From positions 1 to 47,493 of the forward strand of contig JAPXMM010000001.1 in the NCBI GenBank assembly GCA_033809015.1: a stretch of 47,493 bases of DNA, given 5' to 3'. The notes under the pieces are model-generated. The model searched no databases. It saw nothing but the letters and a program-made list of their open reading frames with translations, and was not told where the DNA came from. Shown piece by piece: positions 9,423-47,250 of this stretch. Position 1 is the stretch's first letter. Every line of letters begins with the position of its first letter. Both the position numbers and the translations under genes were made by a program. The stretch comes from Bacteroidales bacterium. GTDB lineage: Bacteria; Bacteroidota; Bacteroidia; Bacteroidales; DTU049.

Positions 9423-10430
9423 ATGAAGCCTAATATTTTTAGTATAGCCACAAAGGAGCTGTCGCAAGACGGTTTTTTTACTTGGCTGTTGCAATGGGGA
9501 GCACCTGAAAATGAGAAAATCGACAGTAAATTGTTTAAATGTGCTCAAAATTTTATTAAACTCCTTTTGTCAACTCACAACATCGAAATTAAAGAAATAA
9601 CTAAAGTTGATGCAGGACGTCAATGGGAAAATATAGACATTTGGGCTAAAATAAATAATGAATATCTGATTATTATTGAAGATAAAACATTTACAGTAGA
9701 ACATTCTAATCAACTTGAAAAGTATAAAAAAACTGCTGCTGATTGTTGCGAAAAAAATAATTACAAATTAATTTGTATATATTTAAAAACTGGAGTACAA
9801 TCAAAGTCGTCACTTGAAAAGATTAGAAACAAAGGATTTCAAATAATTGACAGGAAAGAATTGATTACATTTTTTGAAAAAAATGTAGTTGATAATGATA
9901 TTTATAATGAATTTGTTGAAAATCTTAATTCGCTTGAAAGTTCCATAAATTCATTTGAAACTCTACCAATAAAGAAATGGGATCATTATAGTTGGCTAGG
10001 TTTTTATCAATTTTTAGACACAAAACTTGAAGGAAATGATTGGCAATATGTTCCTAATCCCTCTGGTGGTTTTTTAGGCTTATGGTGGCACTTTTTAAAA
10101 TGGAAAGATTATGATGTTTATTTACAAATAGAGCAAGGTAATTTGTGCTTTAAAATTGGAGGAGTATCTAAAAACCATAGTTCTGTTAGAAATGAATGGT
10201 TTTCGGTTTTATCAAAGCAGATAAAATCTGAAAATCTAGTTGAAATAAAAAAACCTCCTAGATATGGTAAAGGATATTTTATGACTGTAGGTATTGTTCG
10301 TCGAGAGGATTGGCTTGGGCAAGATGATAGTATATTAGACAAAGAACAAGTTATTCGTAATTTGAAAAAATATGAAAACTTCTTATCAAATTGCGTAAAA
10401 CAATCAAACACAGAAAGTAACATCATTTAA
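9423..10430 (+). CDS. PD-(D/E)XK-superfamily nuclease family protein (defence-island type)
   Basis: N-terminal MKPNIFSIATKELSQDGFFTWLL. Candidate catalytic motif ENIDIW-x9-LIIIEDK (D...ExK). No other recognisable domain. Confidence 0.6.
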   Translation: MKPNIFSIATKELSQDGFFTWLLQWGAPENEKIDSKLFKCAQNFIKLLLSTHNIEIKEITKVDAGRQWENIDIWAKINNEYLIIIEDKTFTVEHSNQLEKYKKTAADCCEKNNYKLICIYLKTGVQSKSSLEKIRNKGFQIIDRKELITFFEKNVVDNDIYNEFVENLNSLESSINSFETLPIKKWDHYSWLGFYQFLDTKLEGNDWQYVPNPSGGFLGLWWHFLKWKDYDVYLQIEQGNLCFKIGGVSKNHSSVRNEWFSVLSKQIKSENLVEIKKPPRYGKGYFMTVGIVRREDWLGQDDSILDKEQVIRNLKKYENFLSNCVKQSNTESNII

Positions 10431-33205: not shown

Positions 33206-34288
33206 TTATATTTCTCTATATAGCAAATAACCAGCAATGATAATATATATAAAATTAGGTAACCATGCTGCTACAAATGGTGGTAGTATGCCAGCTACAC
33301 CATATGATACACTAATTTGTTGGAATAAAATATATCCAAAGCTCAAAGATAATCCTATGGCTAGGTTTATACCCAATCCTCCTCGTCTTTTGTTTATTGA
33401 TAGAGCTACTGCTATTATTGTTAATATCATTGCAGCAAAGGGAGAGGCAAATCTATTTTGTCTTTCTACTAATAATTCATTTATATTTTCTGCTCCTCTT
33501 TGTTTTTGTCTTTTTATGAATTTATTCAATTCATTGAAATTCATTGTTTCTAAAAGTGTTGTTTCATATGCTAGGTCACTAGGTGTTATTGGCAATAATG
33601 TATCTATAGTTTTATATCTTTTTAATTGTTCTGTACTGTCTTTGATTTTTCTAATTACTACATCGTTTAATTGCCATTTATTTGTACTATTGTCATATTT
33701 TATATATGAAGACATCATTTTTTGTTTCACTCCAGTTTTGTAATCAATATTATCAATTGAGAGAAATGTACCTTCATAGTCTTTGACATCCCAATTTGCT
33801 AAGTACAAATAAGTATTTTTATCTAATTGCAAATGTATTTGTACTTCTTTTGTTTGAGGATTTCTTTTTACGTAAGTGTTTTCAAAATTAATTCTTCTTT
33901 GATTTGCTGGTGGTAAAATAAAATTTTGTAAAAAAAATGAAAATATTGCTAATAAAATACTAACAGCTAAATATGGTTTTAGGATTCTTTTAAAATCTAT
34001 CCCTATGCTGTACATAGCTATTATTTCAGATTTATTTGCTAGTTTAGAGGTGAAAAATATCACTGATATGAAAATGAATAATGCTGAAAATAAATTGATA
34101 AAATAAGGAATAAAGTTTAAATAATATTGTGTGATTATTAGTGATACTGGGGCATCTTTAGCGATGAATTTATCTATCTTTTCTGATAAATCAAATGCAA
34201 TTATTATGAATATCAATAAAGTAATAGTTAATAAAAAAGTACTAATAAATTTTTTAGCTATATAAAGATCGATTTTTTTAATTCTCAT
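33206..34288 (-). CDS. LptF/LptG-family LPS export permease
   Basis: MRIKKIDLYIAKKF start. Three N-terminal and three C-terminal TM helices around a periplasmic insert. Overlaps the tgt stop by 4 nt (ATGA). Confidence 0.8.
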   Translation of the reverse strand: MRIKKIDLYIAKKFISTFLLTITLLIFIIIAFDLSEKIDKFIAKDAPVSLIITQYYLNFIPYFINLFSALFIFISVIFFTSKLANKSEIIAMYSIGIDFKRILKPYLAVSILLAIFSFFLQNFILPPANQRRINFENTYVKRNPQTKEVQIHLQLDKNTYLYLANWDVKDYEGTFLSIDNIDYKTGVKQKMMSSYIKYDNSTNKWQLNDVVIRKIKDSTEQLKRYKTIDTLLPITPSDLAYETTLLETMNFNELNKFIKRQKQRGAENINELLVERQNRFASPFAAMILTIIAVALSINKRRGGLGINLAIGLSLSFGYILFQQISVSYGVAGILPPFVAAWLPNFIYIIIAGYLLYREI

Positions 34289-35409
34289 AATCTTTTCATG
34301 TAGGTTTCTATTGCTTTAGGATAATATTTATCATAGTCACCTTTGATAATGTGATAACGTATTTCTTGCATCAATCTTATGTAAAATGCTAAATTGTGGT
34401 ATGATGCTATCATAGGACCTAGCATTTCACCTGCTTGAAATAAATGTCTTAAGTATGATTTTGTAGTAGAATGGTCAATCTCTAATGGACTTTGAATATC
34501 TATTGGAGAAAAATCGTTTTTCCATTTTTCATTTTTAATATTAATTATTCCCTCGGTAGTAAATAATTGTCCATTTCTGCCATTCCTAGTAGGTATTACA
34601 CAATCAAACATATCCACTCCTAATGCTACAGCTTGCAATATATTTTCTGGAGTTCCTACTCCCATTAAATACCTGGGTTTATTCTCTGGCAAAATGTTAT
34701 TTACTATTTTTATCATTTCGTACATCATTTCTGCTGGTTCTCCTACGCTCAAACCTCCGATGGCATAACCTAATGTATCAAATTGACTGACGAAGTTAGC
34801 AGCTTTTTCTCTAAGTTCTGGGTAGGTGCTACCTTGTACTATTGGGAATAAATATTGTGGGAAATTGTATTTCGATGGATGCTTTTCCAAATATTCTATA
34901 CATTTTACTAGCCATTTTTGTGTCAGATCAAGTGATTTTTTAGCATATTCATAATCTGCTGGATGTGGTGTGCACTCATCAAATGCCATCATAATATCCG
35001 AACCAATGTATTGTTGAATTTCCATTACTTTTTCTGGTGTAAAAAAATGTTTACTGCCATCTATATGTGAACGAAATTCCACGCCTTCTTCGTTAATTTT
35101 TCTGATATTGGCTAAAGAATACACTTGATATCCACCGCTATCGCTTAATATTGGTTTTTCCCAATTAATGAATTTATGTAATCCATCTGCTTCATATAAT
35201 ATATCTGTACCTGGCCTCAGATACAGATGATAAGTGTTTGCTAATATTATTTGTGCTTTTATTATATTTTTTAAATCATTCCACATTATTCCTTTTACAG
35301 AACCTACCGTCCCTATGGGCATGAATACTGGTGTTTCTATTTCTCCATGTGGCAATTGTAATATTCCAGCTCTAGCTTTACCATTTTTTGATTTAATCTC
35401 AAAACTCAT
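34285..35409 (-). CDS. tgt: tRNA-guanine transglycosylase (queuine tRNA-ribosyltransferase)
   Basis: TPVFMPIGT, LSDSGGYQV, MAFDEC, GLSVGEP and VGTPE, plus the Zn site CVIPTRNGRNG...H. Confidence 0.95.
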   Translation of the reverse strand: MSFEIKSKNGKARAGILQLPHGEIETPVFMPIGTVGSVKGIMWNDLKNIIKAQIILANTYHLYLRPGTDILYEADGLHKFINWEKPILSDSGGYQVYSLANIRKINEEGVEFRSHIDGSKHFFTPEKVMEIQQYIGSDIMMAFDECTPHPADYEYAKKSLDLTQKWLVKCIEYLEKHPSKYNFPQYLFPIVQGSTYPELREKAANFVSQFDTLGYAIGGLSVGEPAEMMYEMIKIVNNILPENKPRYLMGVGTPENILQAVALGVDMFDCVIPTRNGRNGQLFTTEGIINIKNEKWKNDFSPIDIQSPLEIDHSTTKSYLRHLFQAGEMLGPMIASYHNLAFYIRLMQEIRYHIIKGDYDKYYPKAIETYMKRL

Positions 35410-35519
35410 TTTTAGTAGTTAATTTTTATTGAAATTTAGCAAAATTAATAATTATTTGAATCTTGTTTTTATAAATATAAATAGGTAAACAAGTCAAAGA
35501 ATATGAATATTAGAAATTC

Positions 35520-36620
35520 TTAATTAAGAACTTCTTTCACTTTAGTCTCATCAGCTTTATGGTTAATGCTATATTTAGCTTCTATTACTCCATCTTTCAT
35601 AAATACTATTCCAGGATTAGCCCTTATGAGCATTTTGAGAGCTATATCATCTGCAAAGACATAAGGTATTTTTAATTTATAATTATTTAATTGCTGTTCT
35701 ACTAATTTGCTATCAGAGGAAGTAACTAAATAAGTATTGAGATTATATTTTTCTGCTAAGTTAATCCAGTTTTTTAATTTTTCTGAGTTCTTTTGATTAA
35801 TTTTTTCAATATTATAGCTGACTATGAGCATAGTAGGTTTTTTATTTAGCATCACACTATCAGTGATATCATAGCCTGTACTATCATATGTCATAATTAA
35901 TAGTGCAGGTTTTTGAGCTTTTTCTATTCTAGTATCCACGAATTCATGTTCTGCCAGCCATAGGCTATCATCCCACGGATATTGATTAGCTGGATATTCT
36001 TCTAATTGACCTGTATTTTTATTTTTGTAAATGACGAAATATTTATCCTTTAGATTGGGATCAGGCTTTAGGTCTACACCTATTTTATAAGGTAAAAAAT
36101 CTATTATAGGCAAATATGTAAGTCCATATGCTGATACTCCAAATATAAATAATGCTGAAATACCAATTATTATCCACTCCACAGTATTTTTTAACCACGA
36201 TTTTAAATATTTCCTTTGCCATATTACAAAAATTATCGCAGCAGTGATTATAATGTTTTTATAAAATGTATTCCAATTGCTTAGCTTAATAGCATCACCG
36301 AAACATCCACAATCAGACACTGCATTTGTAATAGCTAGATATAGGGTAAGAGGTAAAAAGAATGCCATAAATATCAGAGAACCCCATATAGCATATTTGG
36401 GTTTCAAATTTACTAATAATGAAAAACCTATGATAAACTCTGCTGCTGGAATTAATATAGCAAGGACTAAAGCAAAGGGAATGAAAATATCCCAATTAAA
36501 TGCGATAAAGTAATCTTCTAATTTGAACTGAAACCCCCAAGGATCTACAGCTTTCACAAAACCTGAAAATACAAAAACTAATCCTATTAATATTCTAACA
36601 ATATTTACTACTTTTTTCAT
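35520..36620 (-). CDS. DoxX/MauE-family membrane protein with a C-terminal thioredoxin-fold-like domain
   Basis: Four or five N-terminal TM helices with the SDCGCFGD motif typical of MauE/DoxX-type proteins. Soluble C-terminal half. Confidence 0.55.
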   Translation of the reverse strand: MKKVVNIVRILIGLVFVFSGFVKAVDPWGFQFKLEDYFIAFNWDIFIPFALVLAILIPAAEFIIGFSLLVNLKPKYAIWGSLIFMAFFLPLTLYLAITNAVSDCGCFGDAIKLSNWNTFYKNIIITAAIIFVIWQRKYLKSWLKNTVEWIIIGISALFIFGVSAYGLTYLPIIDFLPYKIGVDLKPDPNLKDKYFVIYKNKNTGQLEEYPANQYPWDDSLWLAEHEFVDTRIEKAQKPALLIMTYDSTGYDITDSVMLNKKPTMLIVSYNIEKINQKNSEKLKNWINLAEKYNLNTYLVTSSDSKLVEQQLNNYKLKIPYVFADDIALKMLIRANPGIVFMKDGVIEAKYSINHKADETKVKEVLN

Positions 36621-36666
36621 AATAATTAATTTTTACAAATTTCTGAAATTTTTTTTAATTATTATT

Positions 36667-36674
36667 TATTTTTG
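36667..36674 (+). promoter_or_regulatory. -7 box TAnnTTTG for rdgB
   Basis: 'tatttttg' ends 8 nt before the ATG at 36683. Confidence 0.4.
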
Positions 36675-36682
36675 CTAAAAAA

Positions 36683-37255
36683 ATGGAAATTGTTTTTGCT
36701 ACACATAATGAAGCTAAAGTTCACGAGATTCAAAATCTCATTGGTGAAAAAATTAAAATATTAAGCTTAACAGATATAGGGTATATAGAAGAAATCCCCG
36801 AGACTGGTAGTACATTTAATGAAAATGCTTTTATAAAAGCTAATACAATATATCAAATTTATAAAAAACCTATTTTTGCAGATGATTCTGGACTAGAAGT
36901 TAAAGCTTTGGATGGCAGGCCAGGTGTTTATTCTGCTAGATATGCTGGCATAGGTTTAGAAAATTTCGAACCACATATTATTAAATTATTGAAAGAATTG
37001 GATGGTGTAGAAGATCGCAGAGCAAGATTCAGAACAGTTATTTGTCTGATTATCAATGAAAAAACTTATTATTTCGAAGGAATAATTAATGGGAAAATAA
37101 TAGATTATCCTCGCGGCAATAATGGTTTCGGTTATGACCCTATTTTTGTACCTGATGGTTATGATAAGACATTTGCAGAGATGAACTTAGATGAGAAGAA
37201 TACCATAAGTCATCGATCACAAGCTATAAATAAAATGTTAAAATTTTTAATGTAA
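36683..37255 (+). CDS. rdgB: Non-canonical purine NTP pyrophosphatase (RdgB/HAM1 family)
   Basis: IVFATHNEAKVHE, ADDSGLEVKALDGRPGVYSARY, GFGYDPIF and ISHRSQA. Confidence 0.9.
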   Translation: MEIVFATHNEAKVHEIQNLIGEKIKILSLTDIGYIEEIPETGSTFNENAFIKANTIYQIYKKPIFADDSGLEVKALDGRPGVYSARYAGIGLENFEPHIIKLLKELDGVEDRRARFRTVICLIINEKTYYFEGIINGKIIDYPRGNNGFGYDPIFVPDGYDKTFAEMNLDEKNTISHRSQAINKMLKFLM

Positions 37256-37273
37256 GAATATAATAAATTATTT

Positions 37274-37467
37274 GAAATAGGCGTTTAGATAATAAATTTT
37301 GCTAAAAAATTTTTTTTGTAATAATGTAAAACGCTGATATTGATTTTTATCTCTTCCTGTCCGCATTGGGAAATGATTTGCACCAAAACGATGTACCGTC
37401 AACATCCTTGTTGATAAAATATGATTTTTTTTCATAGTTAGAAAAGATAGATTTTATAAAAAAGAAT
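37274..37467. repeat. MITE-like intergenic repeat, copy 5a (left part only)
   Basis: 37274-37382 is a near-identical direct repeat of 37469-37577: 'aaataggcgtttagataataaattt(t/g)gctaaaaaattttttt(t)gtaataatgtaaaacgctgatat(t/c)gatttttatctcttcctgtccgcattgggaaatgatttgc'. Confidence 0.8.
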
Positions 37468-37468
37468 T

Positions 37469-37808
37469 TAAATAGGCGTTTAGATAATAAATTTGGCTAA
37501 AAAATTTTTTTGTAATAATGTAAAACGCTGATATCGATTTTTATCTCTTCCTGTCCGCATTGGGAAATGATTTGCTATAAAACAAGCAAGCCGTTTAGGG
37601 CAAAAGGTTTTACACTGTCTCAAGCAAGCTTTAGCTTGCGAGTTTGTAAACCCCAATGGATGATTGCGTATGTTTTATCAAATCATTTCCCCAGCGGAGA
37701 CTTTTTTTGTTACTTTTTTGTGTAGTTGACAAAAAAGTAAAATATAATTAAAACGTTATTACTATTACATTAATACTAATAATTTAGTTATTTATTAAAC
37801 GCCTAATT
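37469..37808. repeat. MITE-like intergenic repeat, copy 5b (full length, with terminal inverted repeats)
   Basis: Left end is 'aaataggcgtttagataataaattt'. The reverse complement of the right end (37779-37808) is 'aattaggcgtttaataaataactaaatt'. Contains the 145-nt foldback and a 12-bp hairpin 'ttacttttttgt gtagttg acaaaaaagtaa' at 37711-37741. Confidence 0.7.
37554..37698. repeat. 145-nt extended foldback (hairpin) element nested in repeat copy 5b
   Basis: 'tccgcattgggaaatgatttgctataaaaca' pairs with 'tgttttatcaaatcatttccccagcgga'. Inner pairings are gcaagcc.ttt.ggg / ccc.aa.gg....ttgc, ggtttt.aca / tgtaaacc, and ctcaagcaagc-ttta-gcttgcgag. Confidence 0.7.
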
Positions 37809-37823
37809 ATATAAATTATATTC

Positions 37824-38654
37824 TTAAAATAATTCCATATTATCTATCAACCTCACATCGCCCAGCCACGTTGCTATCAAAATAATTGATTTACCTTCAT
37901 TCCAATCATTTATGGTTTTTAGAGTATCAGCATTTACGATTTCTACATATTCTATTTTGAAATCTGGAAATTGACTTAGATGGTCTATCACAGCTTGTTT
38001 CACTTCGTTAATAGATTTTTTATAAGCCAAATTTTTGGCTAATAGAAGAGCTTTATATATTTCTGGGGCTAGTTTTAATTCATTTTCACTAAGTCTAAGA
38101 TTGCGACTACTCATAGCTAAGCCATTTGGCTCTCTCAATATTGAAACTGCGATTATCTCTATAGGTAAATTTTGTTGTTTTACTAACTCTTTAATTATTA
38201 CGTATTGCTGGTAATCTTTTTTACCGAAATATGCTCTATCTGGCTTAATAATATGGAATAATCTATTAACCACAATAGCTACACCATTGAAATGTCCAGG
38301 TCTGTATGCACCCTCTAAGATTTTGTCTAAATAACCAAAATCATAGCTCTCTTTTGGTGGCTCTGGATACATCTCATCTACACTTGGGGCGAAGACTACA
38401 TCACAATTATAAGTTTCTAAAAGGTTAAGATCATCATCCAATAAACGAGGATATTTATCAAAATCCTTTTTATCATTGAATTGCACTGGATTTACGAAAA
38501 TACTAACTACTGTGGTAGCATTTTCTTTTTTAGAATGTTCTATCAAAGATAAATGTCCCTGATGTAGTGCTCCCATGGTAGGTACTAGTCCTATTGGATG
38601 TTTTTGATCTGCTAAATATTCCTGTAGCTCTTTTATTTTTGTAAATACTTTCAT
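37824..38654 (-). CDS. panC: Pantoate--beta-alanine ligase
   Basis: GLVPTMGALHQGHLSL, VSIFVNPVQF, FGKKDYQQ and AMSSRN. Confidence 0.95.
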   Translation of the reverse strand: MKVFTKIKELQEYLADQKHPIGLVPTMGALHQGHLSLIEHSKKENATTVVSIFVNPVQFNDKKDFDKYPRLLDDDLNLLETYNCDVVFAPSVDEMYPEPPKESYDFGYLDKILEGAYRPGHFNGVAIVVNRLFHIIKPDRAYFGKKDYQQYVIIKELVKQQNLPIEIIAVSILREPNGLAMSSRNLRLSENELKLAPEIYKALLLAKNLAYKKSINEVKQAVIDHLSQFPDFKIEYVEIVNADTLKTINDWNEGKSIILIATWLGDVRLIDNMELF

Positions 38655-38717
38655 AATCTTGAAAATTAATTTTCAAAATTAATAAAGAATAAGGAAACAA
38701 GAGATAAATAAAAAATA

Positions 38718-41700
38718 TCAGTTTTTTGGTTTAAAGCCCAATGTATTTCTTTCATGAGGTTTATTTGGGTTTGTAGTATTGACTACATTTTGAATATCTT
38801 CTTTAGTAATTAAAATAAGGTCATTAGAAGTTATATTATCTAATTTAGCTATTCTATCACTTTGAGTTTGAAGAATTTTTTCAAAAATATTTCTTACAAA
38901 TCTACCATTACCGAAATGTTTATCTTTATTTTCGTAAGAATCTATGAAATAGCTTATAAGTAATTGCTCAGCATCAGGTTCTAATGTCATAGATCTTTTT
39001 TTGATAAATCCATCAAAAATGTCCATTAACTCATCGGGTTTGTAATCTACGAAGTTAAAATACCTATTAAATCTTGATTTCAAACCAGGATTAGTTTCTA
39101 TTAATTCTTTCATTTCATCAGGATATCCTGCTAAAATAACCACAAATTTACCTCTATCATCTTCCATTCTTTTGAGTAGAGTTTCTAATGCTTCTTTACC
39201 AAAATCATTGCCACTATTAGGTGGATTTAAAGAATATGCTTCATCTATAAATAGTATTCCGTGCATGGCTAAATCGATGACCTTATCAGTTTTAGGACCA
39301 GTTTGGCCGATATATTCACCTACGAGGTCGTTACGAGATACTTCTACTACGTGTCCTTTAGGTAATAAACCTAGAGATTTATATATGCGACCTATTAATC
39401 TAGCGACTGTTGTTTTACCAGTACCTGGCGGACCTTGAAAAACTGCATGTAAACTTAAATTTTGTGTTGCTAAACCATGATCAGATCTTAATTTTTCTAC
39501 TCTAATATAATTTAAAAGTTGTTCAACATCTTTTTTAATATCATCCAATCCAATTAGTTCATTTAATTCAGACATTATATCTTCTATATTTTCTGAAATT
39601 TCTTCTTTAAATTCATCATCTATAGCATTATTAATATCCACTATATCTATTGTGCAAAGATCTTGATCGCTTATATTATCCATTTCTGCTAATCTAGCAG
39701 ATTGATATTGGACGATTTCTTCAAAAAGATTTCTCACTAATCTAGCATTGCCAAAAGTATCAGTTCTCGATTTATAAACATAATCTAAATATTTTGCTAC
39801 TTTTTCTTTAGCTTCATCAGTTATTTGAAAATTAGAAACTTGAACAATTCTGTTAAAAATTTCCAATAATTCTTCAGGTGTGTAATCTTTAAAAGAAAAA
39901 TATCTGGTAAACCTAGATTGCAAACCAGGATTAGATAAAATTAATTTATTCATTTCATTAGGGTATCCAGCAATAATAACCACCATTCTATCCCTTAGGT
40001 CTTCCATTCTTTTTAATAAAGTATCTATAGCCTCTTTGCCAAAATCATTCCCACCATTTTCTGGCATTAATGTGTATGCTTCATCGATAAAAAGTATACC
40101 ATCTATAGCACTATCAATAACTTTATTTGTTTTAATAGCTGTTTGCCCAATATATTCACCTACTAATTGAGAACGATCTACTTCAATTAAATTTCCTTTA
40201 GATAATAATCCTAATGATTTGTATATTTTACCCAAAAGTCTAGCAACGGTTGTTTTGCCTGTACCTGGAGGTCCTTGAAAAACTGCATGAAGAGATATAG
40301 GATTAGAACTCATACCCCTATCTCTGCGCATTTTTTCTATTTTTATATATTTCATTAAATTATTTATGTCTTCTTTTATATTAGATAATCCTACAAGTTT
40401 GTTGAGTTCTGCCATCAACTCATCTAAAGATTTTTCTTCAATATTTTCATTATTTTGTGATGTATTTTGAGGTATTATAGTATTTTTAACAGTTTCTGCC
40501 TCTTTGATAGAATCTTTGAATAGTTCCTCGTCAGGGTCTAATTTTAATGCTTTATTAAAAAAATCAATTGCTTCATCAGCTAGTTTATTATCTAATAACA
40601 CTTTGCCTAAATAATAAAATACAGAAGAATTAGTAACATTATTAATAGTTTTCTGAGAACAATTTTTAGCTATTTCTAATAGTTCATCAAATTTATTTAA
40701 ATCATATAAACAAAAAACTAAATTAGAAAAAATAGTAGGATTGGTTTTATCTATTCTATATGCTTTTTTGTAATATTCTAATTCTTTATCACTATCACCA
40801 AGCCAAGACCATGCAGCACCTATACCATTAATTGCAGAAGCAAATTCTGGATTTATTTTAAGTGCATTTTCAAAATATTCTATTGCTTTAGAATAATTTT
40901 TTTTATTAAAATACTCCATGCCAGTAGTGAATAACCTTTGAGCTTTAGGATCTATTTGTTGTATATTTTCTATTTCATCATTTTCTTTTGATGGATCATA
41001 AGTTCCTTCTTCATCACTATCATGATAGGTATTTATCATTATCGGTATAGACATTATTATTAACCACATGCCATTGCCATAGCAAACATTTGTAATTTCA
41101 TAACCTTCATTTAATTTTTCTCTAACATCTGCTTCTGGGAAATTATAATCTAAAATATAAAATTGATTTTCATAGGGAGCAATTTGACTCATTACTAGAC
41201 CCCATTTATTGTTTGAAGGACATATTGATGTAATAAAGTAGCCTTTAGACCAGTAATCTTTTATTGTTTTTGAAGGGAATTCGCTATATAACCCAAAAAT
41301 TTGTTTTCCTAAATTATTTGACTTTCCAAATACTATTATCCATCTATCATATGAAAATGATAGATGGATAATAGTATCTCCTGATTTTAAGTAATCTTTA
41401 ATCTCATTTGATGGAAAATCTTGTTTTGTTAACCATTTTTGATCAGATATTCCTGTATTTGTTGACATTACAACATACCATACTCCTTCACCAAATCCTA
41501 TATTGCTAATATCAAAATTGTCTTCCCATCCATTTGTTATTACTTCTTCTGGAAAATCTAATCTAGTACTCCATTTTTGATCTAAATATTTGCTATCATT
41601 ATCATATACTAATATCCATTTATTCTCTCCATATGCTAAACGATTTATAAAAGCTCCTTGTCTCCAGATATCATTGATTTGTTCTTCTGGGAATTTTTTT

Positions 41701-41726
41701 GAAAATAAAAAGTTTTGTCCACTCAT
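38718..41726 (-). CDS. Multidomain protein: 5 x 46-aa N-terminal repeats, TPR region, and two tandem CbbX/SpoVK/EccA-type AAA+ ATPase modules
   Basis: aa 12-226 hold five units that each start with FP at exact 46-aa spacing (FPxxxIxxxWxxGxxI...W.(V/I)VMS). TPR-like helices span about aa 260-400 (YSKAIEYFENALKINPEF...). Two modules each have Walker A VFQGPPGTGKTTVARL, Walker B GILFIDEAY, and GYP.EM...NPGL.SRF. Confidence 0.8.
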   Translation of the reverse strand: MSGQNFLFSKKFPEEQINDIWRQGAFINRLAYGENKWILVYDNDSKYLDQKWSTRLDFPEEVITNGWEDNFDISNIGFGEGVWYVVMSTNTGISDQKWLTKQDFPSNEIKDYLKSGDTIIHLSFSYDRWIIVFGKSNNLGKQIFGLYSEFPSKTIKDYWSKGYFITSICPSNNKWGLVMSQIAPYENQFYILDYNFPEADVREKLNEGYEITNVCYGNGMWLIIMSIPIMINTYHDSDEEGTYDPSKENDEIENIQQIDPKAQRLFTTGMEYFNKKNYSKAIEYFENALKINPEFASAINGIGAAWSWLGDSDKELEYYKKAYRIDKTNPTIFSNLVFCLYDLNKFDELLEIAKNCSQKTINNVTNSSVFYYLGKVLLDNKLADEAIDFFNKALKLDPDEELFKDSIKEAETVKNTIIPQNTSQNNENIEEKSLDELMAELNKLVGLSNIKEDINNLMKYIKIEKMRRDRGMSSNPISLHAVFQGPPGTGKTTVARLLGKIYKSLGLLSKGNLIEVDRSQLVGEYIGQTAIKTNKVIDSAIDGILFIDEAYTLMPENGGNDFGKEAIDTLLKRMEDLRDRMVVIIAGYPNEMNKLILSNPGLQSRFTRYFSFKDYTPEELLEIFNRIVQVSNFQITDEAKEKVAKYLDYVYKSRTDTFGNARLVRNLFEEIVQYQSARLAEMDNISDQDLCTIDIVDINNAIDDEFKEEISENIEDIMSELNELIGLDDIKKDVEQLLNYIRVEKLRSDHGLATQNLSLHAVFQGPPGTGKTTVARLIGRIYKSLGLLPKGHVVEVSRNDLVGEYIGQTGPKTDKVIDLAMHGILFIDEAYSLNPPNSGNDFGKEALETLLKRMEDDRGKFVVILAGYPDEMKELIETNPGLKSRFNRYFNFVDYKPDELMDIFDGFIKKRSMTLEPDAEQLLISYFIDSYENKDKHFGNGRFVRNIFEKILQTQSDRIAKLDNITSNDLILITKEDIQNVVNTTNPNKPHERNTLGFKPKN

Positions 41727-41752
41727 ATATAATGATTTATTTTTTTAGAAAA

Positions 41753-41782
41753 AAAACCTGCCAATATATCGACAGGTTTTTT
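41753..41782 (-). terminator. Rho-independent-type hairpin between the small membrane gene and the AAA+ gene
   Basis: 'aaaacctgcc aatatat cgacaggtttt' has an 8-bp stem aaaacctg/caggtttt. It is flanked by A/T runs on both sides; on the minus strand a T8 run follows the hairpin. Confidence 0.5.
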
Positions 41783-41804
41783 AGATTTTTTTTAATGTTA
41801 ATTT

Positions 41805-42167
41805 TTAGCCTCTCTCAGCAATAGCTTCATTTAGTGCATTGACAATTCTGTCTATATAAGCTTCATCTTTACTTGTTAATGCTTCTTCACTTCCTGAAGC
41901 ACTTGCAAGGCTAATTATGTACTTGTTTTTTTGCATTATCCACCATAGTACGGCTCCAGCTAGTAATATTATTGCTAGAACCCATTGAAATGCAAAACAT
42001 ACTAATCCGATAATACCTAATATAATCGGACCAGTTCTTTTAGGTTTTACAATGTATTTAGCTACAGATGTTACATTACCCATAGAATGCATTTTACCAT
42101 AGGTTAAAAAACGAGCATTAGTAACTTTTACATCACCTTCATCAAAATAAATTTTTTCTTCTGCCAT
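41805..42167 (-). CDS. Small membrane protein: N-terminal beta-rich (bPH-like) segment, TM hairpin, short C-terminal helix
   Basis: IYFDEGDVKVTNARFLTYGKMHSMGNVTSV, then GPIILGIIGLVCFAFQWVLAIILLAGAVLWWI (two TM helices), then IISLASASGSEEALTSKDEAYIDRIVNALNEAI. From memory the layout resembles DUF6232-type proteins; this is unverified. Confidence 0.55.
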   Translation of the reverse strand: MAEEKIYFDEGDVKVTNARFLTYGKMHSMGNVTSVAKYIVKPKRTGPIILGIIGLVCFAFQWVLAIILLAGAVLWWIMQKNKYIISLASASGSEEALTSKDEAYIDRIVNALNEAIAERG

Positions 42168-42425
42168 ATAATTTTTTTTGGGGGTTTATTAAAAAATTTT
42201 TACAAAAATAGTAAAATATTTGATATAATAAAATATTTTATATAATTGAAAATAATTTATTTTGTATTTATTGGATTAAATCTAAAATTATAAAGAAAAT
42301 TCAAATATATTAAGTCTATTTTTACAATAATTTACTAAAGAAAATTATTAAAGAAAAAAATAAACCAATAACAATTATTTTACATTAAATAAATATATTT
42401 ATTTAATGAATTAACAAATTTTATT

Positions 42426-42433
42426 TAATTTTG
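42426..42433 (+). promoter_or_regulatory. -7 box TAnnTTTG for the glycogen gene cluster
   Basis: 'taattttg' lies 20 nt upstream of the ATG at 42454. Confidence 0.4.
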
Positions 42434-42453
42434 CATAAAATATACTATTGAGT

Positions 42454-44406
42454 ATGAGTTATTTATCATTTGATAAACAGCAGCTTGTAAATTTAGAGTT
42501 TTCATTGAATAGAGAAATTATCAGGGCTAATAGAGCTGGAGCATATGCTAGCACTACTATTATATATTGTAATACGCGAAAATATCATGGTTTATTAGTA
42601 TCACCACAGCCTCAATTAGATGATGATTTACATGTTTTCCTTTCGGCTATAGATGAGAGCATTATACAGCATGATGCTGAGTTTAATATTGGTATTCATC
42701 AATATCCTGGTTCTGTTTATTTTCCTAAAGGGCATAAATATGTTGAGGAATTTCAGAGTGTGCCTATTCCTACGCTTATTTATCATGTAGGAGGTGTAGT
42801 TTTGTCTAAACAACTATTATTTATAAATAAAGAAGATAGAGTCCTCATCAAATACACTCTATTAGATGCTCATAGCGATACTTTATTGCGTTTAAAACCA
42901 TTTTTAGCTTTTAGAAATTACCATACTCTCAGTAAAGCAAATATGTATGCTAATAAAAATTACGAAGAATGCGAAAATGGTATTATGATGAAGCTATACA
43001 AAGGTTATAGTCCATTGTATATTCAAATTTCTAAAGAAGCAAAATATGTTCATGCTCCAGATTGGTATTATAATATCGAATATCGAAAAGAGCTAGAACG
43101 TGGTTATGATGGACACGAAGATTTACTTGTACCAGGTTATTTCGAATTTCCTATCAAAAAAAATGAAAGTGTCATCATAAGTGCAGGTTTATCAGAGACT
43201 AAACCTAATATGCTAAAAAGATTATTTAATAATGAGCTAAAAAATAGGATACCACGTGATAGTTATGAAAATAATTTAATTAATTCTGCACAGCAGTTTA
43301 TCATACAGCGAGGTAATGATGTAGAAATAAAAGCTGGTTATCACTGGTTTGGCAGATGGGGACGTGATACTCTAATTTCTTTACCAGGATTAACATTAGT
43401 AACGGGTAACTATGATCTATGCAAAAAAGCTATAGATACACTTTTAGCTGATAAAAAAGGTCCATTGCTACCTAATGTAGGTAAACAGGAACGAGTAGCT
43501 ATCAATTCTGCTGATACATCATTATGGCTTTTCTGGACTTTGCAGCAATATCAATTATTTACTAATGAAGCACCAATGAAAATCTGGCGTTTATATAAAA
43601 ATGACTTGCAATCTATTCTTTATGGTTATCGTAATGGAGAGGCTAAAGGCATATGGATGAGTGAGGATGGATTGATAAATGCTAAATTACCAGGATATGC
43701 TTTGACATGGATGGATGCTATTGTAGATGGTAAACCTGTGACTCCTCGTTACGGAAAGCCAGTAGATATAAATGCTCTATGGTATAATGCTATTTGTTAT
43801 GCTATTTATTTAGCTGAACACGTAAATGATAACGAATTTATAGATGATTGGTTACCAATAAAAGAAAAAATCGAGAACTCTTTTTTAGAAACTTTTTGGG
43901 ATGAACAACATGACTATTTAGCTGATTATGTAGATGATGGAGAAAAAGATTGGTGTGTACGTCCTAATATGGTTTTTGCAACTTCATTACCATACGTTTG
44001 TTTAGATGAGAAAAAAAGATTATCTGTTTTGGAGAGAATACAACAAGAGCTTTTGACACCAAGAGGATTGCGAACTTTGAGTCCCAAATGTCCACATTAT
44101 CGTGGTCATTATGAAGGCCCCATAAAAGAGAGAGATCTCGCGTATCATCAAGGAACAGTGTGGCCATGGCTTTTAGGTGCTTTCGCTGAAGGATATCTTA
44201 GGATTTTTGGTAAAAATGGAATTCCATTTATTGAAAAAATTTATTTCGATTTAGAGTCTACTTTATCTGAACATGGTGTGGGTAGTATAAGCGAAGTCTT
44301 TGATGGAGATCCACCACACAAACCTGGTGGAGCTATTTCTCAGGCTTGGAGTGTAGCAGAAATTATGAGAATGAAATGGTTAATTGAAAAATATAAAAAT
44401 CTATGA
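42454..44406 (+). CDS. Glycogen debranching enzyme (amylo-alpha-1,6-glucosidase, GDE N- and C-terminal domains)
   Basis: REWLLTN-like start region (REIIRANRAGAYASTTIIYCNTRKYHGLL), GYHWFGRWGRDTLISLPG, and YHQGTVWPWLLGAF...ISQAWSVAE. ATG at 42454 preferred over the TTG at 42448. Confidence 0.85.
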   Translation: MSYLSFDKQQLVNLEFSLNREIIRANRAGAYASTTIIYCNTRKYHGLLVSPQPQLDDDLHVFLSAIDESIIQHDAEFNIGIHQYPGSVYFPKGHKYVEEFQSVPIPTLIYHVGGVVLSKQLLFINKEDRVLIKYTLLDAHSDTLLRLKPFLAFRNYHTLSKANMYANKNYEECENGIMMKLYKGYSPLYIQISKEAKYVHAPDWYYNIEYRKELERGYDGHEDLLVPGYFEFPIKKNESVIISAGLSETKPNMLKRLFNNELKNRIPRDSYENNLINSAQQFIIQRGNDVEIKAGYHWFGRWGRDTLISLPGLTLVTGNYDLCKKAIDTLLADKKGPLLPNVGKQERVAINSADTSLWLFWTLQQYQLFTNEAPMKIWRLYKNDLQSILYGYRNGEAKGIWMSEDGLINAKLPGYALTWMDAIVDGKPVTPRYGKPVDINALWYNAICYAIYLAEHVNDNEFIDDWLPIKEKIENSFLETFWDEQHDYLADYVDDGEKDWCVRPNMVFATSLPYVCLDEKKRLSVLERIQQELLTPRGLRTLSPKCPHYRGHYEGPIKERDLAYHQGTVWPWLLGAFAEGYLRIFGKNGIPFIEKIYFDLESTLSEHGVGSISEVFDGDPPHKPGGAISQAWSVAEIMRMKWLIEKYKNL

Positions 44407-45698
44407 GAGTATTGATGTTTGGTTGGGAATTTCCACCACATATTTCAGGAGGTTTAGGTACAGCCTGCTATGGGCTCACAAAAGCTCTCCTCAGGCAAGG
44501 TGTAGAGGTTGTTTTTGTTGTTCCTAAAGCCTTTGGCGACGAAGATAATGAAATTAGAATAGTAAATGCTTCAGATTTTGAAATTAATTTAGAAGATCAA
44601 TCTACTGTAGAACTATGGAAAAGATTGAAATATATCCAAGTAGCTTCCAAAATAATTCCTTATATTAGTCCAGAATATTATACCCAGGAATATGAAAAAT
44701 TATTAAAAGAAGAAATTAATAAAAATAATATTTTTAAACAAAAATATCAATTCGCAGGTACATATGGCCCTAATCTGATGTATGAAGTTTCTAGATATGC
44801 ATTAATTGCTAGCGCATTGGCTGCTACAAATGATTTCGATGTAATACATGCTCATGATTGGTTAACATATCCAGCTGGCATAGCTGCTAAAAATACTAGC
44901 GGTAAACCATTAGTAGTTCATGTACATGCTACAGAGTTTGACCGTAGCGGAGAAAATATTAACCAAGATGTATATAATATCGAACGTGAGGGCATGATGC
45001 AAGCTGACAAAATTATTACCGTATCTAACTATACAAGAAATATTGTGATTACTAGATATGGCATAAATCCTGATAAAGTTTTTACTATCTATAATGGTGC
45101 TGATGCATTTAAGTTTAATACTAGACCTAAAGTGCAGAAACCATATAAAGAAAAAGTTGTAACTTATATTGGGAGAATAACTTTCCAGAAAGGACCAGAA
45201 TATTTTGTAGAAACTGCTCGCAAATTATTACAATATGATAATAATGTGAGATTTGTGATGGCTGGCTCTGGAGATATGTTTCCCCGAATAATAAGATTAG
45301 CAGCTCGATATCGTATAGGACACAAGATTCATTTTACTGGCTTTCTAAAAGGTCCAGAAGTGGAAGAAGTACTTTCATATAGTGATGTTTATGTGATGCC
45401 AAGTGTTTCTGAACCTTTTGGTATCTCACCACTAGAAGCTTTGATGTCTAATATTCCTATTGTTATTTCTAAACAAAGTGGCGTAGCAGAGGTTCTCAAA
45501 CATGCTATTAAAGTGGACTTTTGGGATATAGATGCTATGGCTAATGCTATTTATGGCATTTTAAATTATCCAGCTATTAATAAAATGTTTCAAAAATATA
45601 GTAAAGATGAGGTAGATCAGCTAAAATGGGATAACTCAGCTTTTGAGGTTAAACAACTATATGAGTCTTTATTACGTGAATATTTAATTTTAAAATGA
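44403..45698 (+). CDS. Glycosyltransferase family 4 (glycogen-synthase-like)
   Basis: FPPHISGGLGTACYGL, HAHDWLT, GRITFQKGPEYF and PSVSEPFGISPLEA (the EX7E region). Overlaps the upstream stop by 4 nt. Confidence 0.85.
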   Translation: MRVLMFGWEFPPHISGGLGTACYGLTKALLRQGVEVVFVVPKAFGDEDNEIRIVNASDFEINLEDQSTVELWKRLKYIQVASKIIPYISPEYYTQEYEKLLKEEINKNNIFKQKYQFAGTYGPNLMYEVSRYALIASALAATNDFDVIHAHDWLTYPAGIAAKNTSGKPLVVHVHATEFDRSGENINQDVYNIEREGMMQADKIITVSNYTRNIVITRYGINPDKVFTIYNGADAFKFNTRPKVQKPYKEKVVTYIGRITFQKGPEYFVETARKLLQYDNNVRFVMAGSGDMFPRIIRLAARYRIGHKIHFTGFLKGPEVEEVLSYSDVYVMPSVSEPFGISPLEALMSNIPIVISKQSGVAEVLKHAIKVDFWDIDAMANAIYGILNYPAINKMFQKYSKDEVDQLKWDNSAFEVKQLYESLLREYLILK

Positions 45699-45705
45699 TA
45701 AGTGT

Positions 45706-47250
45706 ATGAGATATATCTGTTTCTATTTTCAAGTTCATCAACCTATGAGATTGAGAACTTACAGATTTTTTGACATTGGAGTAAATCATCATTATTATGA
45801 TGATTATCAAAATCAATATATACTTCGTAGAGTTGCAGATAAGTGTTATTTGCCAATGAATCATTTGCTGTATGAACTTATCCAAGAGTTTGGACAACGA
45901 TTTAGAGTGGCTTTCTCCATCTCTGGAGTAGCCCTTGAGCAATTTGAGAAATATGCTCCAGAAGTTATTGAAAGTTTCAAATTATTAGCCAATACTGGTG
46001 CAGTAGAATTTTTAGCTGAAACTTATAGCCATTCCTTGGCTTCTGTTATTTCTAAAGAAGAATTTTATTCTCAGATTAATTTACAACAAGAAAAATTACA
46101 ATCTTTATTAGGTGTGAAACCTAGTACAGCTTTTAGGAATACTGAGCTTATCTATAGTGACCAGATAGGTGAATATGTAGCAGATTTGGGATATAAAGTA
46201 ATGCTGGCAGAGGGTGCTAAACATATATTAGGCTGGAAAAGCCCACATTTCCTTTATTATAACGTAAGAAAACCTGAACTTAAACTTTTACTAAAAGACT
46301 ATCAACTTAGTGATGATATTGCTTTTAGATTTTCTAATAGAGAATGGAACCAATGGCCATTGACAACAGAAAAATATGTAGATTGGCTTAATAATATTGA
46401 TAAAAACCATGAAGTCGTTAATTTATTTATGGATTATGAAACTTTCGGAGAACATCAATGGAAGGAAACAGGTATTTTTGATTTCATGAGGGCATTACCA
46501 GGTAGGGTATTTTCACATTCAGATTATGAGTTTGCTAATCCTACAGAACTCACAGAAATACTTCAACCCGTAGCTCCACTTCACGTACCATATCCTACTT
46601 CATGGGCAGACGAAGAAAGAGATCTCACTGCTTGGTTAGGAAACGATCTGCAAGAGGATGCCTTTAATACATTATATTCACTCAGAGATAAAATCTTACA
46701 AACAAATAATCCAGACATTTTCAAAGATTGGTTGTATCTGCAAACAAGTGATCATTTTTATTATATGTGTACCAAATGGTTCTCTGATGGCGATGTACAT
46801 AAATATTTTAATCCTTATGGTTCACCATATGATGCATATATTAATTATATGAATATTTTAAGTGATTTCATAACTAGAATTGATAATATTTTATCTCAAC
46901 AATCTGATATAAAACTAAATGATACTAAAAAACAAGAAGGTGTTCACATAAATAAAACTACTAATAGAAGTCTTAAAAAAACTGATGTTAAAAAATCAGT
47001 TAAGAAAAATAACAAAAATGATAATATTAAACTCACAAAAAATCAAATAGAAACAATAATTAAAGAATTCACATTAAAAGAATTAGCTTTATTATCTAAA
47101 CAATTACCAGAAAATATTTTTAATAAAATTAATGATCAACTAGACGAAAAACAAAAGAGTAAATTAGAAAAAGAAATAGAGAAAATAATACGTCCTAGAA
47201 AAGATAGTATAGACAAAATAATGACAAAGTTTAAAGAATTAGTAAAGTAA
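45706..47250 (+). CDS. Glycoside hydrolase family 57 protein (alpha-amylase / glucanotransferase type) with a Lys-rich helical C-terminal extension
   Basis: ICFYFQVHQPMRL, FSISGVALEQ, LAETYSHSL, MDYETFGEH and WADEERDLTAWLGN. The last roughly 120 aa are K/N/E-rich. Confidence 0.85.
   Translation: MRYICFYFQVHQPMRLRTYRFFDIGVNHHYYDDYQNQYILRRVADKCYLPMNHLLYELIQEFGQRFRVAFSISGVALEQFEKYAPEVIESFKLLANTGAVEFLAETYSHSLASVISKEEFYSQINLQQEKLQSLLGVKPSTAFRNTELIYSDQIGEYVADLGYKVMLAEGAKHILGWKSPHFLYYNVRKPELKLLLKDYQLSDDIAFRFSNREWNQWPLTTEKYVDWLNNIDKNHEVVNLFMDYETFGEHQWKETGIFDFMRALPGRVFSHSDYEFANPTELTEILQPVAPLHVPYPTSWADEERDLTAWLGNDLQEDAFNTLYSLRDKILQTNNPDIFKDWLYLQTSDHFYYMCTKWFSDGDVHKYFNPYGSPYDAYINYMNILSDFITRIDNILSQQSDIKLNDTKKQEGVHINKTTNRSLKKTDVKKSVKKNNKNDNIKLTKNQIETIIKEFTLKELALLSKQLPENIFNKINDQLDEKQKSKLEKEIEKIIRPRKDSIDKIMTKFKELVK

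Follow-up and report, generated by a model that had tools for sequence, protein, structure and literature searches.

A DUF7477-TPR protein with two SpoVK-EccA-like AAA+ modules, encoded beside membrane-protein genes in Bacteroidota: a candidate membrane-recruited chaperone

The SpoVK-EccA-like clade of AAA+ ATPases has only recently been defined, and its three studied members are each a dedicated chaperone for one client. The client of SpoVK is MurG and that of CbbX is Rubisco, while EccA serves type VII secretion substrates; CbbX is a hexameric remodeller of its single client. The clade was placed among the classical AAA+ ATPases together with criteria for membership, which include a helical hairpin directly before Walker A, also present in FtsH, and a conserved Asn that precedes the first Arg finger by four residues; SpoVK itself was described as a Bacillus subtilis sporulation chaperone promoting MurG function (PMC11513918).

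The protein compared with these systems here is encoded by an ORF of 1002 aa (38718..41726, minus strand) in a window of 47,493 nt from a Bacteroidales bacterium (contig JAPXMM010000001.1), the window being the whole stretch of DNA that was analysed. The ORF starts with ATG, its start and length match those of about 50 full-length homologs, and its product has no signal peptide. Both this gene and the adjoining DUF6232 gene were covered by metatranscriptome contigs; the protein is real and transcribed, and belongs to a little-studied but widespread Bacteroidota family. The domain order is DUF7477, TPR array, AAA+ module D1, AAA+ module D2 and a C-terminal tail. A first-pass annotation made from the letters had proposed a repeat domain followed by TPRs and two CbbX/SpoVK/EccA-type AAA+ modules, and this order is correct.

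The N-terminal aa 1-229 (41040..41726, minus strand) matched Pfam DUF7477 (PF24289) with 135 bits (gathering threshold 27, E 3.5e-39) and consist of five 46-aa strand-helix-strand-strand units, located on the minus strand at 41556-41693 (R1), 41418-41555 (R2), 41280-41417 (R3), 41142-41279 (R4) and 41040-41141 (R5). The residues 'FP' recur at aa 12, 58, 104, 150 and 196, an exact 46-aa spacing in which the exactness concerns the spacing only, the units being approximately 25% identical to one another. Periods from 40 to 52 were scored and only 46 gave a positive value, with a summed BLOSUM62 score of +512 against -476 +/- 47 for shuffles (z = 21), which bears out the five evenly spaced units read at first pass. 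The repeat, which could not be named then, can be named now as Pfam DUF7477 with the 7TPU N-domain fold.

The AF2 model of the domain (pLDDT 93.4, pTM 0.88) places a helix and three strands in each of the five repeats. A Foldseek search with this model returned 7tpu_A (E 2.7e-5, probability 1.0, TMq 0.53) as the only PDB match with E <0.001, and the domain is thus modelled as a barrel-like five-fold strand-helix-strand-strand fold, as in the N-domain of the fungal polyglycine hydrolase Fvan-cmp (7TPU), whose fold has been described (PMC9912923). Both have five quasi-identical strand-helix-strand-strand repeats of about 44-46 residues with barrel-like closure, and for both a protein-binding role is a suggestion. 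The likeness is at fold level only, without detectable sequence similarity: the A1 profile searched against the PDB gave zero matches even at E = 10. In the fungus the domain is part of a secreted protein, joined to a beta-lactamase-like protease, whereas DUF7477 here is a cytoplasmic domain in front of TPRs and AAA+ modules; its repeats are recognisable in sequence (FP...W...G...W.VVMS...Q.W), whereas the fungal ones were noted only as structural repeats. A beta-propeller, which had been considered possible at first pass, was rejected, as the units are built of three strands and a helix instead of four-strand blades and no propeller was among the Foldseek matches.

DUF7477 was found in 1421 representative clusters in an exhaustive representative search, fused to caspase (21/85), kinase (12/85) and TIR (3/85) domains and also to AAA domains. 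Given this spread and these fusions, DUF7477 appears to behave as a portable binding module. The earlier view of the N-terminus as a recognition region is supported. No paper naming DUF7477 or DUF6232 was found in the literature.

An acidic, low-confidence linker (aa 230-260; 40947..41039, minus strand; pLDDT <50 for aa 233-244), variable in alignment A1, is followed by the TPR array (aa 261-401; 40524..40946, minus strand), in which about four repeats were located by Pfam (TPR_1/2/8/11/14/16) where TPR-like helices had been suspected. The ATPase region contains two AAA and two AAA_lid_6 domains according to Pfam, arranged as module D1 (aa 436-703; 39618..40421, minus strand) and module D2 (aa 716-985; 38772..39581, minus strand), which are 56% identical over 272 aa and whose motif residues are invariant in alignment A2. 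Each module carries Walker A GPPGTGKT (aa 485-492 in D1, 765-772 in D2), Walker B ILFIDE (544-549, 824-829), AGY (586-588, 866-868, with GY at 587-588 and 867-868), NPGL(Q/K)SR (NPGLQSR 599-605, NPGLKSR 879-885) and sensor-2 GN(A/G)R (GNAR 659-662, GNGR 939-942). The pore-loop Tyr was aligned with the CbbX motif 'GQYIGHT', and residues G587, Y588, G867 and Y868 were invariant in 18 homologs. Judged by these motifs, D1 and D2 are both complete: the motifs for binding and hydrolysing ATP are intact in each, a pore-loop aromatic residue is present, and the earlier reading of two complete CbbX/SpoVK/EccA-type modules with like Walker and sensor regions holds.

The clade signatures appear to be present in both modules. 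In the alignments, aa 431-480 and 711-760 correspond residue by residue to the N-terminal helices of the EccA1 C-domain and CbbX, placing a helical region before each Walker A; the GY motif is carried by both modules; Asn599 and Asn879 are invariant in alignment A2; and the sensor-2 Arg is kept and invariant (R662, R942). At the first Arg-finger position, which is Arg in EccA1 and CbbX, D1 carries Gln603 and D2 carries Lys883, and the ATPase mechanism may therefore differ; an Arg two residues downstream of it (R605, R885) is invariant. The closest solved relatives were the EccA1 C-domain 9LUR (4e-59) and CbbX 3SYK/3ZUH (1e-57).

Assignment to one of the named families was evaluated per module with NCBIfam. 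The SpoVK model (TIGR02881) was the top-scoring one for each module alone, with 300.9 and 295.4 bits against a cut-off of 422.95, and the whole protein, at 584 bits, exceeds this cut-off solely because the two modules sum. The corresponding values were 275.7 and 261.4 bits for EccA (TIGR03922, cut-off 466.65), and 231.8 and 243.1 bits for CbbX (TIGR02880, cut-off 459.25). The whole protein passes all three of these mutually exclusive 'equivalog' cut-offs by adding up two modules, so that automatic annotation can misname such proteins SpoVK, EccA or CbbX. SpoVK proper was rejected on the per-module score and on the different N-terminus and taxon. EccA proper was likewise rejected: each module stays below the cut-off, and although the protein has TPRs, it has two modules, and neither the window nor the related loci contain type VII secretion genes. 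CbbX proper was rejected on score, on the two modules and on gene context, as no Rubisco genes were present in the Pfam-scanned flanks (30614-47250) or in the gene tables of the related loci.

Tandem proteins of the clade with 2 to 5 modules were found, among the matches listed, in Streptomyces, Saprospiraceae, Clostridia, Bacilli and Prevotella, and DUF7477 with two AAA modules was present in 76 of the 120 best matches. Genome and metagenome scans with the full-length alignment, in which Walker-motif patterns dominate, added among the matches listed the DUF7477 loci L012, L096 and L097, of which L096 is identical with L007, and made plain how frequent tandem modules are. In Bacteroidota the exact architecture is widespread, with dozens of clusters. 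The doubled module had been thought unusual, and the architecture more so in Bacteroidota; neither view survives, as multiple modules occur in many phyla and most of the best matches share the layout seen here. The first-pass annotation would have been refuted by a well-characterised repeat domain in a common annotated family with a known housekeeping role; only half of this case applies, as the domain does have a name and the architecture is common, and the known housekeeping role is the part that did not hold.

The protein ends in L-G-F (aa 996-998; 38733..38741, minus strand), a copy of a conserved basic-(I/L/V)-G-(F/Y) tail motif whose G997 is conserved in at least 90% of alignment A2. Among the best 120 relatives, and in counts that are not phylogeny-corrected, the (I/L/V)-G-(F/Y) tail occurs in 40 of 50 DUF7477-TPR-AAA proteins, likewise in the long-TPR relatives, but in 0 of 52 TPR-less proteins, bar the N-terminally truncated fragment P0118. 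Judging from these 120 sequences the motif is found only where TPRs are present, and the tail probably docks on the TPR array of its own chain or of a neighbouring subunit.

Upstream of the AAA+ gene lies a DUF6232 gene of 120 aa (41805..42167, minus strand; Pfam PF19744, 64.2 bits against a gathering threshold of 27.4). Its AF2 model (pLDDT 84) shows five strands, a transmembrane helical hairpin (aa 45-78), two strands and a C-terminal helix, and the top Foldseek matches were PH domains (GRK2, Sin1, Brag2, AKT3), which are weak (E 0.14-1, TMq 0.35-0.45). A PH-like fold is a seven-stranded sandwich with a C-terminal helix as its cap, whereas the model has 5 + 2 strands and that helix, interrupted by the hairpin. 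The protein is a candidate PH-like protein, probably cytoplasmic and anchored in the inner membrane, with the putative PH-like domain modelled on a transmembrane hairpin. Between the two genes, 23 nt before the AAA+ ATG, is a terminator-like hairpin with a U8 tract (41749..41782, minus strand; dG -16.5 kcal/mol, z -2.7). The depth of the RNA contigs was 36-944 for DUF6232 versus 3-10 for the AAA+ gene, and at least one RNA contig reads through the hairpin and spans the DUF6232/AAA junction.

Membrane-protein genes precede the AAA+ gene on the same strand, mostly 4-190 nt away, in all 11 distinct DUF7477-AAA loci, a small sample. These neighbours encode DUF6232 (6/11), a LamG-SH3-multiTM-zinc-ribbon protein, hereafter LamG-TM (8/11), and a 330-aa membrane protein (3/11); the LamG-TM gene is absent from the window and from its closest relative, L004, and DUF6232 is absent from L001 and L011. 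The small transmembrane protein pointed out at first pass is this DUF6232 protein, and with its recurrence in six loci it merits attention. Approximately 150 tandem-AAA loci without DUF7477, among those listed, had no DUF6232, LamG-TM or 330-aa neighbours, nor did the long-TPR relative in L176 have these membrane-protein neighbours, which indicates that the membrane partners track DUF7477. DUF6232 as an obligate partner was rejected: it is widespread in Proteobacteria, Cyanobacteria and Chlorobi without this ATPase, for example in Janthinobacterium, Chlorobium and Cyanobium.

From the domain content and by analogy with the clade, we consider with moderate confidence that the protein is a membrane-recruited specialised chaperone or protein-remodelling machine at the inner membrane, the most likely working place since the gene adjoins small membrane-protein genes. 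The protein would assemble as a hexamer like CbbX and EccA, with the D1 and D2 rings stacked. DUF7477, aided by the TPRs, would recruit the motor to cytoplasmic parts of membrane partners, namely the putative PH-like domain of DUF6232 or, where a genome has the LamG-SH3-multiTM protein, the loop and zinc ribbon of the latter. Powered by ATP, the motor would then work at the inner membrane on one dedicated client, which it would remodel, activate or extract, and binding of the C-terminal tail by the TPR array would probably be a regulatory or assembly contact. An envelope-related role is our best guess.

The genomic surroundings bear on three other explanations. The window flanks contain LptF/G, tgt, Ham1, PanC and glycogen genes, the latter (GDE, GT4/GT5 glycogen-synthase-like and GH57) lying divergently just upstream on the opposite strand, and in L004, with 66% identity, genes for glycogen synthase and phosphorylase lie downstream. 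This arrangement would fit an activase of the CbbX kind that serves an enzyme of carbohydrate or glycogen metabolism, CbbX being itself an activase of a metabolic enzyme. Yet the glycogen genes are confined to these two genomes, which are closely related, and in the window they are on the other strand, while the flanks of the remaining nine loci are unrelated; the link was rejected as lineage-specific synteny, and we regard this explanation as very improbable. An EccA-like chaperone for secretion or export is more plausible and still doubtful; here the TPRs and DUF7477 would capture secretion substrates and hand them to an envelope export machine of Bacteroidota, or unfold them for it. TPRs followed by a CbbX-type AAA+ module are the layout of EccA, the EccA1 C-domain is the closest solved structure, and the neighbouring genes encode membrane proteins, of which one has a large LamG-SH3 region outside the cytoplasm. 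Against this, no conserved secretion-system genes (type VII, type IX or other) lie next to the DUF7477-AAA gene in the 11 loci, the modules reach 261-276 bits where the EccA cut-off is 467, and to our knowledge type VII secretion is not a Bacteroidota system.

The protein might also be the NTPase of an unrecognised conflict system (anti-phage or programmed-death-type) or of a transmembrane signalling system, in which DUF7477 would be the ligand sensor, detecting an invader- or stress-derived ligand, the LamG-SH3 and hairpin proteins would be sensor or effector, for instance by disrupting the membrane, and the AAA+ motor would switch them on. The most frequent fusion partners of DUF7477 are caspase-like peptidases, Ser/Thr kinases and TIR domains, a set typical of bacterial conflict-system sensor domains (cf. 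GUN4 and FGS, PMC7159879). No two genomes have the cassette in the same surroundings, its make-up is modular, with either DUF6232 or the 330-aa protein and an optional LamG-TM protein, and in locus L006 a caspase gene and a CsgG-like gene are found just upstream. PADLOC-DB 2.0 gave weak matches of the ATPase to IetA (76 bits, aa 420-591) and TRIP13, which are partial, reflect generic P-loop similarity and are far below family level, and it gave no matches for DUF6232, the LamG-TM protein or the 330-aa protein. The operon has no recognisable effector enzyme, the viral structure models searched with DUF7477 yielded no match across the full domain, and the window flanks are housekeeping genes; the locus does not lie in a defence island, a setting that had been asked about at first pass. 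Taken as a whole we consider a conflict or signalling function unlikely. It is equally unlikely, in our judgement, that the DUF6232/LamG-SH3-multiTM-zinc-ribbon/DUF7477-TPR-AAA2 cassette is an unrecognised Bacteroidota module of this kind, in which an extracytoplasmic lectin-like sensor and a membrane-hairpin PH-like protein would be coupled to a cytoplasmic double-ring motor, DUF7477 would be the same sensor that is joined to caspases, TIR domains and kinases in other bacteria, and the motor would be held in check by the TPR array on its own C-terminal (I/L/V)-G-(F/Y) tail. If true, this would offer a first way into the function of the 'all-kingdom' polyglycine-hydrolase N-domain fold.

What is new here are the membrane-gene neighbours at all 11 loci, the fusions of DUF7477 to caspase, kinase and TIR domains, and the tail motif that accompanies TPRs only. 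The family adds to the clade a widespread tandem-module branch, a new putative recruitment domain and candidate membrane partners, and is therefore a tractable place to ask how such motors choose their clients. The DUF7477/polyglycine-hydrolase N-domain fold occurs in more than 1400 protein clusters, for which conserved operon partners and the fusions to caspase, kinase and TIR domains give testable binding hypotheses.

Compared with the described systems, the membrane-recruited chaperone proposed here is closest in sequence to EccA1 of Mycobacterium type VII secretion, the best PDB match (9LUR C-domain), with which it has the GY motif, the Asn of the second region of homology and the sensor-2 Arg in common. 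EccA has one AAA+ module and no DUF7477, in contrast to the two modules and DUF7477 found here, reads NEGLRSRF where D1 reads NPGLQSRF, and belongs to a type VII secretion locus, of which no genes adjoin the present one. CbbX (3SYK/3SYL/3ZUH) belongs to the same AAA+ clade, was aligned with D2 over its full length (1e-57), and has the pore-loop Tyr and the Walker and sensor motifs conserved; unlike the protein described here it is a single module of about 300 aa without a large N-domain, is encoded with Rubisco genes, and has R-S-R where D2 has K-S-R. SpoVK has the clade-defining signatures in common with the protein and is alike in concept, as a specialised chaperone with one client at a defined membrane-proximal site, but has a single module and a short N-domain (three strands and one helix) and is restricted to sporulating Bacillota. 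The type II AAA+ unfoldases (p97/Cdc48, NSF, ClpB), of which p97 was the next-best PDB group (about 1e-14), likewise carry two modules per chain behind an N-terminal adaptor- or substrate-binding domain; D1 and D2, however, are recent duplicates from within the SpoVK-EccA-like clade, as their 56% identity suggests, and relatives reach 3-5 modules per chain, which classical type II proteins do not.

The ORF at 38718..41726 (-) is genuine and encodes 1002 aa without a signal peptide, with TPRs at aa 261-401 followed by two AAA + AAA_lid_6 modules (Pfam). At the N-terminus, 'FP' dipeptides were located at aa 12, 58, 104, 150 and 196, spaced by exactly 46 residues, while the five units themselves are diverged, with an average pairwise identity of 25%. 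The first-pass annotation of FP repeats, TPRs and a doubled AAA+ module was correct in this respect, if its 'exact' repeats are understood as exactly spaced. The summed BLOSUM62 score of the five units in the 46-residue register was +512, whereas composition-preserving shuffles averaged -476 +/- 47 (z = 21), and when periods of 40-52 were scanned none except 46 scored positive. Judged by these scores, the units are clearly homologous despite their divergence.

The same annotation could not name the repeat and suggested a beta-propeller. A Pfam name exists, DUF7477 (PF24289, 135 bits, cut-off 27), and an AlphaFold2 model built from a 23-sequence alignment (pLDDT 93.4, pTM 0.88) predicted five units of one helix and three strands each, which is not a propeller. 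Only one PDB entry matched the model with E < 0.001, the Fusarium vanettenii polyglycine hydrolase 7tpu_A (E 2.7e-5, probability 1.0, TMq 0.53), and a sequence search of the PDB with the DUF7477 profile returned no match. The N-domain of 7tpu consists of five quasi-identical strand-helix-strand-strand repeats of 44 residues each in a barrel-like arrangement, and was described as a novel fold, present in all kingdoms and possibly involved in protein-protein interaction (PMC9912923). The predicted likeness is at the level of the fold only, and this model-based identification is new here. No paper mentioning DUF7477 was found in a literature search.

When 1.84 billion representative proteins were searched exhaustively by HMM, DUF7477 was found in 1421 clusters (351 at E <= 1e-30), in proteins of 224 to 1465 aa, frequently in two copies. 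Partner domains in the best 85 of these clusters were Peptidase_C14 (caspase-like, 21), Ser/Thr kinase (12), TPR (7), AAA (5) and TIR (3), and many of the 85 proteins have signal peptides. The caspase fusions (P0241 and 20 others), many of them with signal peptides, make up a quarter of the best DUF7477 proteins. Because its fusion partners are so varied, DUF7477 appears to be a promiscuous, portable binding or sensing module, a portrait that is also new.

For the ATPase part, the nearest solved relatives were the EccA1 C-domain (9LUR, 4e-59) and CbbX (3SYK/3ZUH, 1e-57), with p97-type proteins far behind. The first module (D1) and the second (D2) are 56% identical, and both carry Walker A GPPGTGKT, Walker B ILFIDE, AGY, NPGL(Q/K)SR and GN(A/G)R. 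The higher-order 'SpoVK-EccA-like' clade was defined in 2024 by four features, namely a helical hairpin that precedes Walker A, a GY signature around sensor 1, an Asn located four residues N-terminal to the first Arg finger and a retained sensor-2 Arg; its members are described as chaperones of narrow substrate range, which recruit their client through variable N-terminal domains and are not linked to peptidases (PMC11513918). The aligned N-terminal helices, GY, Asn and sensor-2 Arg are all present in D1 and D2 and invariant in 18 homologs. The modules deviate at one point: compared with EccA1 (NEGLRSRF) and CbbX (NPGFRSRI), the first of the two arginines in the Arg-finger region is replaced by Gln in D1 (NPGLQSRF) and Lys in D2 (NPGLKSRF), whereas the second is invariant. 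The whole protein scored above the curated cut-off of each of three NCBIfam equivalogs that exclude one another (SpoVK 584, EccA 531 and CbbX 470 bits), which is an artefact, because the scores of the two modules are summed. Scored apart, the modules reached 301/295 bits for SpoVK (cut-off 423), 276/261 for EccA (467) and 232/243 for CbbX (459), a shortfall of 120-230 bits. By sequence, the protein can thus be placed inside the SpoVK-EccA-like clade and outside the SpoVK, EccA and CbbX families. This equivalog pitfall, described here for the first time, is likely to lead to the misannotation of proteins with tandem modules.

The combination of a doubled module with a repeat domain had been considered unusual, but DUF7477 with two AAA modules was found in 76/120 best database matches, about 50 of them in the order DUF7477-TPR-AAA-AAA (~1000 aa), almost all from Bacteroidales, Bacteroidia or Lentimicrobium metagenome-assembled genomes. 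Variants were DUF7477-AAA2 without TPRs (~820-845 aa), TPR-DUF7477-AAA2, a long TPR array with AAA2 (~1250 aa), Hsp70 with AAA3, and three-module proteins. Among the matches listed from genome and metagenome scans, tandem proteins of the clade with 2-5 modules occurred in Streptomyces, Actinomadura, Saprospiraceae, Clostridia, Bacilli and Prevotella, those of Prevotella having four. Four-module relatives of ~1100 aa were seen at six Prevotella/Bacteroidales loci (L046, L054, L058, L076, L077, L081), and five-module chains in Arthrobacter (L067, 1966 aa) and an uncultured Eubacteriales MAG (L068, 2114 aa). P0054 (1625 aa, Gastranaerophilales) fuses two chaperones, an Hsp70 domain preceding three SpoVK-clade modules. 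With a known AAA+ clade, an existing Pfam domain and an architecture common in Bacteroidota, the protein is therefore less odd than first thought.

A conserved C-terminal motif, basic-(I/L/V)-G-(F/Y), reads LGF at aa 996-998 (window 38733-38741), with G997 at least 90% conserved. Among the 120 best matches (P0001-P0120) it was present in 40/50 DUF7477-TPR-AAA2 proteins and also in those long-TPR-AAA2 proteins whose TPRs directly precede D1. It was found in none of the 26 DUF7477 proteins without TPRs adjoining D1 (the TPR-DUF7477-AAA2 form included), in no three-module protein, and in 0/52 proteins without TPRs before D1, one truncated fragment excepted (Fisher's exact p ~1e-9, kinship ignored). 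TPR domains commonly bind C-terminal peptides. The restriction of the motif to relatives with TPRs before D1 suggests that the tail is a ligand of the protein's own TPR array, either in cis or across subunits; alternatively, the tail may dock a partner, a candidate role by analogy with the IGF loop of ClpX. The apparent coupling of TPR array and tail motif is new here.

In the window, the AAA+ gene lies directly 3' of a 120-aa DUF6232 gene (41805..42167) on the same strand. Same-strand upstream genes were compared at 11 distinct DUF7477-AAA loci among the matches listed, and all 11 are linked to membrane-protein genes. DUF6232 stands alone in the window and L004, with a 527-558-aa membrane protein in L003, L005, L007 and L012; the latter occurs alone in L001 and L011 and with a 330-aa membrane protein in L006 and L009, and the 330-aa protein is alone in L097. 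The 527-558-aa (LamG-TM) protein combines a signal peptide and a multi-TM region with a Laminin_G_3 (ConA-like) and an SH3-like domain, and in most copies a zinc ribbon forms the C-terminus. None of these neighbours was found at ~150 tandem-AAA loci without DUF7477 (among the matches listed), nor beside the long-TPR relative found in Flagellimonas. The membrane partners are thus associated with DUF7477 rather than with the motor. This conserved membrane-protein cassette is new.

In the AlphaFold2 model of DUF6232 (pLDDT 84), a TM helical hairpin separates five strands from two further strands, which are followed by a C-terminal helix; the top Foldseek matches of the model were PH domains, albeit weak (E 0.14-1). 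As basic residues flank both TM helices, the PH-like part probably faces the cytoplasm. DUF6232 also occurs without the ATPase in Proteobacteria, Cyanobacteria and Chlorobi. In Janthinobacterium (L092, 5001-7581) the genes after it encode a 566-aa coiled-coil/TM protein and one of 126 aa, both without recorded Pfam matches and dissimilar to the cassette proteins, and in Cyanobium it adjoins an integrase gene and toxin-antitoxin pairs.

The window sequence was detected in anaerobic-digester, wastewater and activated-sludge samples, and metatranscriptome contigs cover and join both genes, one error-free contig (41695-42050) spanning the junction. Within the 78-nt spacer, 23 nt from the AAA+ start codon, lies a terminator-like hairpin with U8 (41749-41782, -; dG -16.5 kcal/mol, z -2.7), which was not among the predictions of a consensus terminator scan. 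Contig depth was 36-944 for DUF6232 and 3-10 for the AAA+ gene, a drop of ~10-100 fold across the hairpin, though expression is poorly reflected by contig depth and some DNA may have been carried over. The simplest, tentative reading would be a single transcription unit whose terminator leaks, giving much anchor and little motor.

In the window, housekeeping genes flank the locus, with LptF/G, tgt, a MauE-like gene, Ham1 and PanC to one side and GDE, a glycogen-synthase-like GT and GH57 to the other. A single sign of a mobile element was seen nearby: between a Mur-ligase-like gene and lptF/G lies an ORF (32007-33014, +) whose product has an ISXO2-like DDE transposase domain (IS1595 family). 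The Ham1-PanC intergenic region (37265-37590, 37664-37691) holds an element of ~125 nt in two direct copies, 90-91% identical and spaced by 194-195 nt, together with part of a third copy in inverted orientation. No Rfam family matched the element, which is possibly a small repeat or else a regulatory region that was duplicated. An Rfam DUF805b RNA motif (9369-9401, +; 39.4 bits, gathering 35.6) lies directly upstream of ORF 9423..10430. At L006, genes for a caspase (Peptidase_C14) and a CsgG-like protein (517-3077) are directly upstream of the cassette.

Taken as a whole, a membrane-recruited motor remodelling a dedicated client is the reading we favour, at slightly better than even chances. 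A conflict or signalling NTPase would fit the fusion of DUF7477 to caspase, kinase and TIR domains elsewhere and the varying genomic location of the cassette, but no effector, defence-island context or database match was found, PADLOC giving no specific match for any cassette protein, and we regard it as unlikely. An EccA-like export chaperone is less probable again, and an activase of a glycogen enzyme very improbable, since glycogen genes next to the AAA+ gene are confined to the window and its closest relative.

In the favoured reading of a membrane-recruited motor, the protein would form a double-ring hexamer, DUF7477 and the TPRs would bind cytoplasmic parts of DUF6232 and/or the LamG-TM protein and so recruit it to the inner membrane, and contact between tail and TPRs would regulate the motor. 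There, a dedicated client would be remodelled, activated or extracted with ATP, by analogy with SpoVK-MurG, EccA and CbbX.
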